From assembly GCF_013122565.1 (NCBI RefSeq), contig NZ_CP053258.1: DNA of 64,000 nucleotides, one strand, 5' to 3'. The stretch's first letter is position 1. Each line of letters begins with the position of its first letter. A model generated the notes under the pieces. It was given only the letters and a program-made list of their open reading frames with translations, was not told where the DNA came from and did no database searches. The position numbers and the translations under genes are program-made. Source of the DNA: Escherichia coli (GTDB lineage: Bacteria > Pseudomonadota > Gammaproteobacteria > Enterobacterales > Enterobacteriaceae). Positions 32,356 through 35,270 of the stretch are shown piece by piece.

Positions 32356-33483
32356 TTGAATTACCAAATGATTACCACGGACGATGCGCTGGCTTCTTTG
32401 TGTGAAGCCGTCCGTGCCTTTCCGGCGATAGCCCTGGATACTGAATTTGTTCGTACGCGCACTTATTACCCGCAGCTGGGGTTGATTCAACTTTTCGATG
32501 GCGAGCATCTGGCGCTAATTGATCCTCTCGGGATCACCGACTGGTCACCGCTGAAAGCGATCCTGCGCGATCCGTCCATCACAAAATTTCTCCATGCAGG
32601 CAGTGAAGATCTGGAAGTGTTCCTCAATGTCTTTGGCGAATTACCACAACCCTTGATTGACACGCAAATCCTTGCTGCCTTCTGCGGACGCCCGATGTCA
32701 TGGGGTTTCGCTTCCATGGTGGAAGAGTATTCCGGCGTTACGCTGGACAAGAGTGAATCGCGCACCGACTGGCTGGCCAGACCGCTGACCGAACGTCAGT
32801 GTGAATACGCAGCGGCGGATGTCTGGTATCTGTTACCGATCACCGCCAAGCTTATGGTAGAAACGGAGGCCTCCGGCTGGCTACCTGCGGCGCTGGATGA
32901 ATGCCGCCTGATGCAAATGCGTCGTCAGGAAGTCGTTGCGCCGGAAGATGCCTGGCGTGATATCACCAATGCCTGGCAGTTACGCACACGCCAACTGGCC
33001 TGTCTGCAACTGTTAGCCGACTGGCGACTGCGCAAGGCGCGAGAGCGCGATCTGGCGGTGAACTTTGTCGTGCGTGAAGAGCATTTGTGGTCGGTAGCGC
33101 GTTATATGCCGGGAAGTTTAGGCGAACTGGACAGCCTGGGTTTATCCGGTAGCGAAATCCGCTTTCACGGTAAAACGCTGCTGGCGCTGGTGGAAAAAGC
33201 GCAGACATTGCCGGAAGAGGCCTTACCGCAGCCGATGCTTAACCTGATGGACATGCCGGGTTATCGTAAAGCGTTTAAAGCGATTAAGTCGCTGATTACT
33301 GACGTGAGCGAAACGCACAAGATCAGCGCCGAATTGCTGGCATCGCGTCGGCAAATCAACCAACTGCTGAACTGGCACTGGAAACTGAAACCGCAGCACA
33401 ATTTGCCGGAGCTGATTTCCGGCTGGCGTGGTGAGCTGATGGCGGAAGCATTACACAATTTATTGCAGGAATATCCGCAGTAA
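32356..33483 (+). CDS. rnd: Ribonuclease D
   Basis: ORF track, 375 aa, starting at TTG 32356 (NYQMITTDDALASLCEAVRAFPAIALDTEF...). DEDD exonuclease and HRDC domains. The UUG start is a known feature of rnd. Confidence 0.95.
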   Translation: MNYQMITTDDALASLCEAVRAFPAIALDTEFVRTRTYYPQLGLIQLFDGEHLALIDPLGITDWSPLKAILRDPSITKFLHAGSEDLEVFLNVFGELPQPLIDTQILAAFCGRPMSWGFASMVEEYSGVTLDKSESRTDWLARPLTERQCEYAAADVWYLLPITAKLMVETEASGWLPAALDECRLMQMRRQEVVAPEDAWRDITNAWQLRTRQLACLQLLADWRLRKARERDLAVNFVVREEHLWSVARYMPGSLGELDSLGLSGSEIRFHGKTLLALVEKAQTLPEEALPQPMLNLMDMPGYRKAFKAIKSLITDVSETHKISAELLASRRQINQLLNWHWKLKPQHNLPELISGWRGELMAEALHNLLQEYPQ

Positions 33484-33489
33484 AATCTT

Positions 33490-33532
33490 CCGAAGCCGGA
33501 CTGGGCGCGCTCAGCGCCACATCCGGCTTCGG
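33490..33532. terminator. Long hairpin between convergent rnd and the yeaX remnant
   Basis: 11-bp outer stem ccgaagccgga/tccggcttcgg enclosing an inner GC-rich repeat (gggcgc..gcgcc). GC-rich and REP-like in style. Confidence 0.45.
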
Positions 33533-33536
33533 CAAA

Positions 33537-33950
33537 CTACAAATCCAACACCAGGCGTTTACCCTTCGCACGCGAACAACAGATCAACATACTTTGCTGG
33601 CTGGCACGCTCTTCATCGCTAAAATACTGATCCCGATGGTCAGCTTCACCTTCCAGTATTGCCGTTTCGCAGGTTCCGCATACCCCTTCACGACATAAAC
33701 ATTCCACTTTCGCGGCTTTATTATTTTCAATAACCTGCAAAATAGTCATCTCTTCCGGCACCACAAACTCTTTTCCGGAACGGGCAAGCACCAGGGTAAA
33801 TGCATCGCCGGTTTTGTCTTCGATAGCAAATTGCTCAAAGTGCAGCGTATCGGCGGCGATGTCCAGACGCGCAGCTTCACTTCTTACCGCTTCAATTAGC
33901 GCCTCGGGGCCACAGGTATAAACGTGTGTGCCAGGTTCGATATCCGCCAT
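33537..33950 (-). pseudogene. yeaX: Truncated yeaX: only the C-terminal part of the reductase, including the plant-type 2Fe-2S ferredoxin domain
   Basis: ORF track 33537..34016 (159 aa). From ADIEPGTHVYTCGPEALIEAV... to ...CREGVCGTCETAILEG...LICCSRAKGKRLVLDL it matches the C-terminal part of YeaX (321 aa in K-12 by my recollection). The N-terminal FMN/NAD part is absent, and codons upstream of 33950 fall in a palindrome and AT-rich DNA. Confidence 0.75.
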
Positions 33951-33992
33951 TGACATCCTCCACGTCCTGAAGGACGAGGAGGATGTCAATGG
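33947..33992. repeat. 46-nt near-perfect palindrome at the yeaX truncation point
   Basis: ccattgacatcctccacgtcct-ga-aggacgaggaggatgtcaatgg: 22-nt arms, 21 of 22 complementary, counted base by base. Each arm carries GGAGG-N6-ATG on its own strand. Confidence 0.9.
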
Positions 33993-34139
33993 CAGGGTAT
34001 GAGTTGTATATTGCATTTAACGAATTAATTATTTTTGTGTTATATAAATTAAACAATTAAGAATTCGGAAAGCCATAAAACACGAAACGGAAACAATAAA
34101 AGGTGAAATGACGCAGGTTATTAACTGCAAAGAACGAAT

Positions 34140-34165
34140 AAAAAAACCGCGTCAGTGACGCGGTT
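34140..34165 (-). terminator. dmlA rho-independent terminator
   Basis: Minus strand: aaccgcgtc-act-gacgcggtt followed by U7, 20 nt after the dmlA stop. Confidence 0.8.
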
Positions 34166-34184
34166 CAAATAAACTGGTTTGACC

Positions 34185-35270
34185 TTAACGCAAAATAATT
34201 TTGCAAATCGCGTCGGCAACCTGTGGCGTGGTGGCACTGCCTTTCATATCCGGTGTTTTCGGCCCGTGAGCAATCACTTCTTCAATCGCTGCCAGAATAC
34301 CGTTATGCGCTTGCTGGAAACGCTCATCGCCATTGCCGAGAAAATCGAGCATCATTGCACCGGCCCAAATTGTGGCGATAGGGTTAGCAATATTTTTCCC
34401 GTAGATATCCGGCGCGGAACCGTGGACAGGCTCGAAGAGCGACGGGAAAGTGCGTTCCGGATTCAGGTTGGCGGATGGGGCAATGCCAATGGTGCCGGTG
34501 CAGGCCGGGCCAAGATCGGAAAGGATATCGCCAAACAAATTGGACGCCACTACCACATCGAAGCGTTCCGGCTGCATCACAAAACGCGCGCAGAGAATAT
34601 CAATATGCTGCTTGTCCCACCGGATCTCCGGATAATTCTCGGCCATTGCTTCCACTCGCTCATCCCAGTACGGCATGCTGATGGCTAAACCGTTCGATTT
34701 AGTGGCAGAAGTTAGTGTCTTACGTGGGCGGCTTTGCGCAAGTTCGAAGGCATAACGCAAAATGCGATCGACACCACGACGCGTAAATACCGATTCCTGA
34801 ATGACGACTTCATGCTCTGTACCTTCATTCACTCTACCGCCGAGCGAGGAATATTCGCCTTCGGTGTTTTCCCTGACCACGTAAAAATCGATGTCGCCAG
34901 GCTGTTTTCCCGCCAGCGGGCAGGGAACGCCAGGAAAGAGACGAACCGGGCGCAGATTGACGTACTGGTCGAATTCACGACGAAATTTCAGCAGCGAACC
35001 CCACAACGAAATATGGTCCGGAACGGTATCCGGCCAGCCGACGGCACCAAAATAGATGGCGTCGAAACGGCTAAGTTGCTCATGCCAGTCGTCCGGCATC
35101 ATTTTACCGTGATGGCTGTAATACTCGCAGCTCGCCCACTCCATTTGCTCAAAACTCAAGGCGAAGCCCCAGCGCTCAGCGGCAGCCTGTAACACGCGAA
35201 TCCCTTCAGGAAGGACTTCTTTGCCAATCCCGTCTCCCGGGATCGCAGCAATACGCATCGTTTTCATCAT
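34185..35270 (-). CDS. dmlA: D-malate/3-isopropylmalate dehydrogenase (decarboxylating) DmlA (YeaU)
   Basis: ORF track, 361 aa (MMKTMRIAAIPGDGIGKEVLPEGIRVLQAAAERWGF...). Isocitrate/isopropylmalate dehydrogenase family. Recognised. Confidence 0.94.
   Translation of the reverse strand: MMKTMRIAAIPGDGIGKEVLPEGIRVLQAAAERWGFALSFEQMEWASCEYYSHHGKMMPDDWHEQLSRFDAIYFGAVGWPDTVPDHISLWGSLLKFRREFDQYVNLRPVRLFPGVPCPLAGKQPGDIDFYVVRENTEGEYSSLGGRVNEGTEHEVVIQESVFTRRGVDRILRYAFELAQSRPRKTLTSATKSNGLAISMPYWDERVEAMAENYPEIRWDKQHIDILCARFVMQPERFDVVVASNLFGDILSDLGPACTGTIGIAPSANLNPERTFPSLFEPVHGSAPDIYGKNIANPIATIWAGAMMLDFLGNGDERFQQAHNGILAAIEEVIAHGPKTPDMKGSATTPQVADAICKIILR

Follow-up and report, generated by a model that had tools for sequence, protein, structure and literature searches.

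Results

The deletion between rnd and dmlA

The stretch of DNA analysed here (the window; 64,000 nucleotides of Escherichia coli, contig NZ_CP053258.1 of assembly GCF_013122565.1) carries, between the genes rnd and dmlA, a deletion in which yeaV and yeaW are lost, yeaX is cut to the part for its ferredoxin domain, and the missing DNA is replaced by exactly 40 bp. These 40 bp form a palindrome, overlooked in a preliminary description of the locus, whose yeaX-proximal part is a right end of the type known from IS609, an insertion sequence (IS) of the IS200/IS605 family. The features of the locus, counted from the first letter of the window, are as follows.

32356..33483, plus strand: rnd (RNase D), left neighbour, intact (open reading frame list; annotated rnd in matching E. 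coli records)
33490..33532: native inverted repeat between the convergent ends of rnd and yeaX, CCGAAGCCGGA...TCCGGCTTCGG, unchanged and within a block of 99.8% identity
33537..33949, minus strand: yeaX remnant, from the last two bases of codon 185 to codon 321 and the stop, coding for no more than the 2Fe-2S ferredoxin domain
33950..33989: complete 40-bp palindrome marking the joint of the deletion, TTGACATCCTCCACGTCCTGAAGGACGAGGAGGATGTCAA; single copy in the window
33950..33980, minus strand: IS609-type right end, hairpin TCC-TCGTCC-TTCA-GGACGT-GGA and tail GGATGTCAA, ending at the element boundary beside yeaX
33981..33989, minus strand: nine nucleotides, TTGACATCC, an inverted copy of the right-end tail that makes the hairpin symmetric and forms a novel joint with the spacer
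33990..34184, minus strand: retained 195 bp of the dmlA-yeaV spacer, including the dmlA intrinsic terminator at 34144-34166 (alignments, terminator scan)
34185..35270, minus strand: dmlA, right neighbour, intact (open reading frame list)
Joint 30-mers: right end to yeaX, GGAGGATGTCAATGGCGGATATCGAACCTG; spacer to 5' arm, CATACCCTGCCATTGACATCCTCCTCGTCC

Strain Res13-Sevr-PER07-33 (locus L001) was used as the reference. Its gene order is rnd, yeaX (321 amino acids), yeaW (374 amino acids), yeaV (536 amino acids) and dmlA, and K-12 has the same order with a shorter yeaV (481 compared to 536 amino acids), in agreement with the order given in the preliminary description. Homology to the reference ends at window position 33949 (L001 6650) and picks up again at 33990-33992 (L001 10080-10082), 56-58 bp upstream of the yeaV ATG. 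Therefore, 3,429-3,431 bp are missing, comprising the N-terminal 184 codons of yeaX, the whole of yeaW and yeaV, and the final 56-58 bp of the spacer before the yeaV ATG; the loss had earlier been put at about 3 kb, close to the roughly 3.4 kb measured. With reference YeaV, YeaW and YeaX as queries, tblastn returned residues 185-321 of YeaX as its sole match (99.3% identity, window 33950-33540), and neither YeaV nor YeaW was matched anywhere in the 64-kb window. The earlier claim of missing yeaV and yeaW, with yeaX cut to its ferredoxin part at this place, is thus borne out, as is the account of the AT-rich non-coding remainder (33990-34184), which on alignment and terminator scan consists of the dmlA terminator and most of the dmlA-yeaV spacer. 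The deletion stands as it had been proposed, though not as a plain one, given that an IS609-type right-end hairpin lies at its joint.

Relative to the carnitine monooxygenase YeaW/YeaX, a Rieske oxygenase and reductase of the CntA/CntB type, the window keeps the C-terminal 2Fe-2S domain of the reductase at 99.3% identity. What it lacks is the half of YeaX that binds flavin and NAD(P), together with the oxygenase YeaW and the BCCT transporter YeaV. Consistent with the missing residues 1-184, the flavin/NAD(P)-binding part of the YeaX/CntB-type architecture is absent from the 159-residue open reading frame that spans the remnant. A Pfam search placed Fer2 at its residues 78-151 (E=4.9e-15), as had been foreseen; the second match was a sub-threshold tail of DmmA-like_N, representing the preceding domain, and not the NAD_binding_1 end that had been expected.

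The state of the locus appears to be exceedingly rare. The full yeaVWX set is present in the reference, and the short form of about 650 bp occurs in 0 of 5,426 complete E. coli genomes: the two flanks were matched in all of these genomes except one, and in none were they joined (at least 80% of the query in one place). The junction of right end and yeaX is likewise found in none of the 5,426 genomes, and neither the left junction nor the double-junction pattern was found in GTDB species representatives or JGI metagenomes. Exact matches to the DmlA protein are widespread in public assemblies, and among the contigs read only intact loci were seen. No database record exists of the exact 159- and 139-residue products, and the 137-residue product is on record only as a TTG-started (codon 185) C-terminal piece of a frameshifted yeaX, with yeaV and yeaW kept. 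In many public E. coli assemblies (L147-L156) a frameshift splits yeaX into a part of about 165-203 residues and the 137-residue part, and yeaV and yeaW remain. The deletion is genuine and specific to this strain. It belongs to a known kind of IS-associated gene loss and has an unusually tidy IS609 right-end scar. The best match of the window among complete E. coli genomes has 98.7% identity over 20 kb, and judging from this comparison the window probably comes from a poorly sampled lineage.

Directly beside the joint, positions 33991-34065 hold 11-12 differences in 75 bp relative to every E. coli spacer compared (best E. coli match, 91%). The background is about 0.3-0.5%: the 2,335 bp that come next hold 11 differences, and the 1,594 bp of the opposite flank hold 5. 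The changes in the cluster are mixed transitions and one deletion, and two of them extend the hairpin into its flanks. A metagenome search for this spacer allele gave one chance AT-rich match only.

An IS609-type right end at the joint

The palindrome at 33950-33989 is composed of TTGACATCCTCC ACGTCC TGAA GGACGA GGAGGATGTCAA and contains one A.A mismatch. As DNA, its predicted folding energy is -26.6 kcal/mol (z = -10.3); as RNA, with about 24 pairs and one internal mismatch, it reaches -45 kcal/mol (z = -7.9). In the alignment to K-12 IS609, an element at ydcL-ydcO annotated as mobile and carrying insQ (putative RNA-guided DNA endonuclease), 29 of the 31 nt next to yeaX are identical to the right end. 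With a slash for the element boundary, K-12 IS609 ends in ...GGGATCCACGTCCTTCAGGGCGTGGAGGATGTCAA/tatcgg and the minus strand of the window in TCCTCGTCCTTCAGGACGTGGAGGATGTCAA/TGGCGG. Common to the two are the subterminal hairpin with TTCA loop, a T.G wobble in its stem, the terminal tail GGAGGATGTCAA and the position of the flank after TTAT. Different from K-12 IS609, the window keeps the 31 nt only, without left end, tnpA, tnpB (insQ) or guide-RNA scaffold, and the sequence upstream of the hairpin is replaced by the inverted tail copy, in that IS609 reads GTAGCAGGGA where the window has TTGACATCC.

Elements of the IS200/IS605 family insert 3' of a short target without duplicating it. Intact yeaX reads GCGCGATTAT/TGGCGGATATC at the joint (GATTAT/TGGCGG), and the junction in the window, judged on the right-end side alone, lies directly 3' of this TTAT with no duplication; K-12 IS609 and a mini-element of the Sakai prophage Sp5 are also both positioned directly after TTAT. 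The presence of TTAT in intact yeaX exactly at the joint makes the junction one that canonical insertion after yeaX nucleotide 553 would give. The deletion, the 31-nt identity with the IS609 right end and the ancestral TTAT are direct observations from the alignments. The junction on the spacer side is non-canonical: the spacer ends in ...CCCTGCCA and is followed by the non-IS609 sequence TTGACATCC (perhaps also TCC), the inverted complement of the right-end tail. A left end of the K-12 type (CCGGTGCGCCGTAAAACCCCATCC...) is absent from the window, TTGACATCC standing in its place, and tblastn with K-12 InsQ and YncK gave no match to tnpA or tnpB in the window.

The same kind of end is found elsewhere beside the genes that belong to it. 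At loci L109 and L010, matching hairpin and tail occur 5-7 nt after the stop of a tnpB-like gene and are preceded by omega-RNA-like sequence with weak Rfam matches (HgcC, sot0042, RAGATH-18). The element end ...GGAGGATGTCAA with its TCAA-type motif is common to the window, K-12 IS609, L109 and L010, and the commonest cleavage motifs of IS605 are TTAT on the left and TCAA on the right (PMC9956272). A hairpin termed the 'RE-like tetraloop' (8-bp stem, UUCA or UUUA loop) has been described for the IS1341-type tnpB elements of archaea and bacteria, where it is located at the right end (PMC4615843); the hairpin in the window conforms to it, being subterminal and imperfect with a 4-nt UUCA loop.

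Known miniature elements offer a further comparison. Palindrome-associated transposable elements (PATEs) carry no genes and consist of a left end fused to a right end of IS200/IS605 elements (PMC4615843, PMC10055086). The window likewise holds a gene-less miniature remnant with a right-end hairpin, the difference being that its 3' part is a right end and its 5' part an inverted right-end tail instead of a left end, with a symmetric single 40-bp hairpin as the result. True left-end/right-end fusions of the IS609 kind occur in Sakai prophage Sp5 and at locus L012, as TTAT/CCGGTGCGCTGTAAAACCCCGTCCTTCAGGGCGTGGAGGATGTCAA. The REP and REPIN sequences moved by RAYTs, Y1 transposases related to the TnpA of IS200/IS605, are also short extragenic hairpins often placed at gene 3' ends. 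REPs are species-specific and have a 5' GTAG-type motif, whereas the symmetric 40-mer keeps identical 12-nt arms across phyla and has no GTAG-type motif.

Other assignments found no footing. The palindrome has no T run on either strand and the terminator scan reports only the dmlA terminator (34166-34144), arguing against a role as an intrinsic terminator. A search of Rfam returned no family for the palindrome, only chance miRNA-like hairpins, and none at gathering threshold for seven of the loci described below. The literature contained the arm sequences only in unrelated primers, and nothing specific was found there on palindromes at joints, mosaic boundaries or Lamassu triggers. Promoter, operator, attC, dif, protelomerase site, CRISPR repeat and sequencing adapter were dropped on reading of the palindrome sequence only.

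The symmetric 40-mer in other genomes

The symmetric unit consists of TTGACATCCTCC, N6, a TTYA loop, the N6 complement and GGAGGATGTCAA, and searches were made with the arms fixed and the inner six pairs left free. The palindrome has matches in 4,946 of the 5,426 complete E. coli genomes, at sites that include prophages, P1-like plasmids, a pPCP1-like plasmid and the region upstream of fecI. Beyond E. coli, the symmetric 40-mer is present in 18 IMG/VR phage contigs with GC contents from 32% to 69% and in at least 120 GTDB species genomes, from Proteobacteria, Actinobacteria (Streptomyces, Frankia), Cyanobacteria, Chlamydiae, Nitrospirae and Lachnospiraceae; archaea among the GTDB matches listed are Halorubrum, Natrinema and Methanomassiliicoccales. 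In loci L005-L146, from IMG/VR and GTDB genome contigs, the unit has unrelated flanks and is carried by phages, plasmids and chromosomes. Its sites have sharp 40-bp edges with no flank consensus and no target duplication, and they are intergenic, often at gene 3' ends. No neighbour gene is conserved; a P4-type integrase with a tRNA gene lies near 8 loci and tnpB within a few kilobases in 4. An insertion that interrupts genes, in the manner of a bypass or an intron-like element, was rejected, as the sites are intergenic and excision of the unit restores no open reading frames.

The inner six pairs covary, with 109 compensatory cells compared to 31 +/- 4 in shuffles and 0 of 500 shuffles as high, and the mismatches are strand-specific U.G pairs (20 UG against 2 GU at pair 16, with the units oriented on the TTYA loop). 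Strong covariation and strand-specific U.G pairing together suggest that the unit works as a single-stranded hairpin, the strand concerned being the minus strand in the window. A scan for lone arms showed that about 20 of 140 loci also carry a hairpin with GGAGGATGTCAA and without the 5' arm, the inner stem being identical in the loci compared; the opposite half, the 5' arm alone, was seen in none of the 140.

Several individual sites deserve description. One cyanobacterial metagenome-assembled genome carries the 40-mer five times, each time with one and the same unusual inner stem and loop (L079, L081, L090, L098, L103), and in the related phage contigs L020 and L021 the 40-mer is flipped at the same site. 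On about 30 P1-like plasmids, an insert of about 480 nt interrupts, after GGAGGATGT, the palindrome at the joint between the serine-acetyltransferase gene and lydA (L175 1096-1620, NZ_CP062905.1; the same site as L003 1501-1540). The insert starts with GTGCG and ends with GAT on the TTYA strand, and it matches group II intron domains D1-D4 (RF02001, 96.9 bits; RF01998, 46.8 bits), so that the hairpin seems, from these matches, to serve as landing site for a hairpin-targeting group II intron. As to empty sites, the Rac-like site is unique, and the site in the P1-like plasmids is occupied throughout, with the group II intron as an additional occupant in some of them. Upstream of fecI, K-12 MG1655 (L158 3432-3472) has a degenerate copy of the palindrome, TTGACATCCTCACTGCCCTAAAGGATGGGGA, with the left end of IS1F a few bases on; the TGA within the TTGACA of this copy is the stop of ykiE, a small protein gene, and the fec loci of Enterobacter and Klebsiella (L040, L101, L139) hold an intact copy at the same place. 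Shiga toxin (Stx) phages (Sakai Sp5, L002 1490-1545; 933W and others) carry the mini-IS609 left-end/right-end fusion, about 46 nt long, after TTAT. The flank of the Sp5 mini-element, ATATACGCCAT, resembles the yeaX flank in the window, ATATCCGCCA, a likeness that may be due to chance.

Expression of the yeaX remnant

The Shine-Dalgarno (SD) sequence and in-frame ATG that had been noted as surviving start signals of the remnant turn out to be neither yeaX nor yeaV sequence: GGAGGA and two ATGs (33956, 33950) are the 3' arm of the hairpin on the minus strand, and in the predicted fold all of them are paired inside the -45 kcal/mol RNA stem. The dmlA intrinsic terminator (34166-34144) precedes the remnant reading frame, and scanning of the spacer gave no promoter-like match on the strand of this frame. 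The ATG at 34016 that opens the 159-residue reading frame was created by window-specific substitutions and has no SD before it. With the sole SD and the near ATGs locked in the hairpin, and the position behind the dmlA terminator, the Fer2 remnant is most likely silent, and production of a free-standing ferredoxin fragment, as had been suggested, appears unlikely on these predictions.

Other losses of yeaVWX in E. coli

Loss of the module as such is common, contrary to the weight that had been placed on it. The yeaX part and the dmlA-yeaV spacer are present in about 4,370 of the 5,426 complete E. coli genomes, and about 1,050 (roughly 19%) are without both. In the one genome inspected of these roughly 1,050, AVS0465 (L162), the scar consists only of rnd, a 156-bp dmlA fragment, a dmlR fragment and leuE. 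Strain SL124 (L161) has IS1 in place of yeaV-yeaW with yeaX intact, and the window has no IS1. Breakpoints and element differ from those of the other losses; the event in the window is hence an independent one and has no counterpart so far. K-12 has a deletion of its own where the spacer runs into yeaV: about 165 bp that other E. coli contain are absent (L174 2000-2260, relative to L001 and L157), and this stretch is a recurrent rearrangement site. Judging from the frameshifted alleles, yeaX seems to have been inactivated often and independently.

Discussion

Based on the alignments, we consider it probable that an IS609-like element inserted into yeaX and that its body was later lost together with 3.43 kb of upstream DNA. 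An IS609-like element (IS200/IS605 family, with the Y1 transposase TnpA and the RNA-guided nuclease TnpB) would have entered yeaX after nucleotide 553, its top strand being the yeaX coding strand. A later illegitimate event would then have deleted the left end, the genes, the omega-RNA scaffold and about 3.43 kb of the DNA upstream, such that the last 31 nt of the right end survived, preceded by an inverted copy, 9-12 nt long, of their own tail; the natural imperfect end hairpin would thereby have been turned into the symmetric 40-bp palindrome. The inverted copy could have arisen by a strand switch during replication or repair, in which the right-end tail was copied and synthesis then switched back at the TCC that forms the base of the natural hairpin. 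We infer both the order of the events and this origin of the copy. The flanks share a 4-nt inverted match (GCCA/TGGC) and further partial pairing, which would help the strand switch. The covariation and strand-specific U.G pairs across the 40-mers, as the signature of a single-stranded hairpin, speak in favour of the history as a whole. The comparison of a P1-like plasmid with phage P1, where homology runs to the exact edge of the palindrome on the 5'-arm side and a different module lies beyond, is compatible with insertion followed by deletion.

A number of observations weigh against this history. Left end, tnpA, tnpB and omega-RNA scaffold are all absent from the window, and insertion is thus deduced from one junction only, at which a TTAT would occur by chance about once in 250 cases. 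An IS609 end at the yeaX site is found in none of the complete E. coli genomes, so that no intermediate is seen. The 5' 9-12 nt are not IS609 sequence, their source being the presumed strand switch; at more than 100 other sites, the symmetric 40-mer begins exactly at the element boundary with no microhomology in the flanks, which a purely microhomology-primed switch does not predict and which hints at an enzyme-defined end or a mobile 40-mer. By GC skew, the top strand of the remnant is the leading-strand template, an orientation reportedly disfavoured for the IS200/IS605 family (Ton-Hoang et al. 2010). Moreover, the mutation cluster at 33991-34065 is left unaccounted for by insertion and deletion.

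A mobile 40-mer would dispense with the full-length element. The symmetric unit would then be a tiny non-autonomous derivative of an IS200/IS605 end, with a single hairpin and moved in trans by TnpA, that inserted after the TTAT of yeaX with an adjacent 5' deletion of 3.43 kb, and full-length IS609 would never have been there. We regard this as possible, though rather unlikely. It would suit the unrelated flanks of the sharply bounded unit in phage contigs (18 from IMG/VR) and in GTDB species genomes (at least 120), the cyanobacterial genome, in which five copies have an unusual inner stem and loop in common and no end of the right-end type lies close by, the lack of 5'-arm-only fragments in the lone-arm scan, and the right-end side that adjoins the TTAT target in the window. 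It is confronted with the lack of a target motif on the 5' side and of any target duplication; the unit's own TTGAC would have to serve as the target, as opposed to the TTAT of IS609, and a single hairpin in which the cleavage sites are paired with one another is no known substrate of TnpA. The approximately 20 of 140 loci that have a right-end-type end with identical inner stem within 8 kb fit local derivation at least as well.

Two further explanations do without transposition into yeaX altogether. Spontaneous deletion by slippage or end joining might have captured a short IS609-related filler, for which the GCCA/TGGC match and partial pairing of the flanks could be cited, and also the 10-nt left flank of the Sakai Sp5 mini-element (ATATACGCCAT, similar to ATATCCGCCA in the window), which could suggest microhomology-guided capture of a prophage copy. 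Such a filler would need to stop precisely at the IS boundary and to be placed directly behind TTAT. The Sp5 copy shows an additional T at the joint and no symmetric 5' arm, and the 4-nt inverted match includes a base that results from a window-specific substitution; we therefore judge filler capture improbable. Least credible is a joint produced by mis-assembly across a repeat or left as the scar of an engineered deletion, an idea to which the absence of the joint from every collection searched, and of the 159- and 139-residue products from the record, might lend itself. The palindrome is single-copy in the window, leaving no second copy across which an assembly could collapse, and it belongs to a natural sequence family; the best match of only 98.7% over 20 kb fits an unsampled natural lineage. 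The palindrome is not known to resemble any of the usual engineering scars, such as FRT and loxP with their 13-bp inverted repeats around an 8-bp spacer.

Among the results that go beyond the yeaX joint, the broad occurrence of the symmetric 40-mer is of most interest, and no description of the symmetric form of the right-end hairpin was found in the literature. As a tentative proposal, less assured than the history of the yeaX joint, the symmetric 40-nt hairpin could be a distinct class of minimal IS200/IS605 right-end derivative, generated or mobilised in a reproducible reaction at a right end cleaved by TnpA, that marks rearrangement joints (the deletion here, the module swap in the P1-like plasmid) and is used as a landing site by a group II intron.

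For the strain itself, uptake of carnitine and gamma-butyrobetaine and their oxidation to trimethylamine via YeaV/W/X are lost as far as this locus goes, in agreement with the metabolic consequence drawn earlier; with about one fifth of the complete E. coli genomes lacking the module, the point is a modest one. The importance of the joint lies in its being a clean natural example of an IS200/IS605-family element leaving behind a deletion and a symmetrised end hairpin. If one mechanism underlies the 40-mer at hundreds of unrelated sites, the 40-mer would provide a simple marker of past activity of TnpA/TnpB elements and, if this is true, would also mark the rearrangements caused by TnpA/TnpB in any prokaryotic or phage genome.

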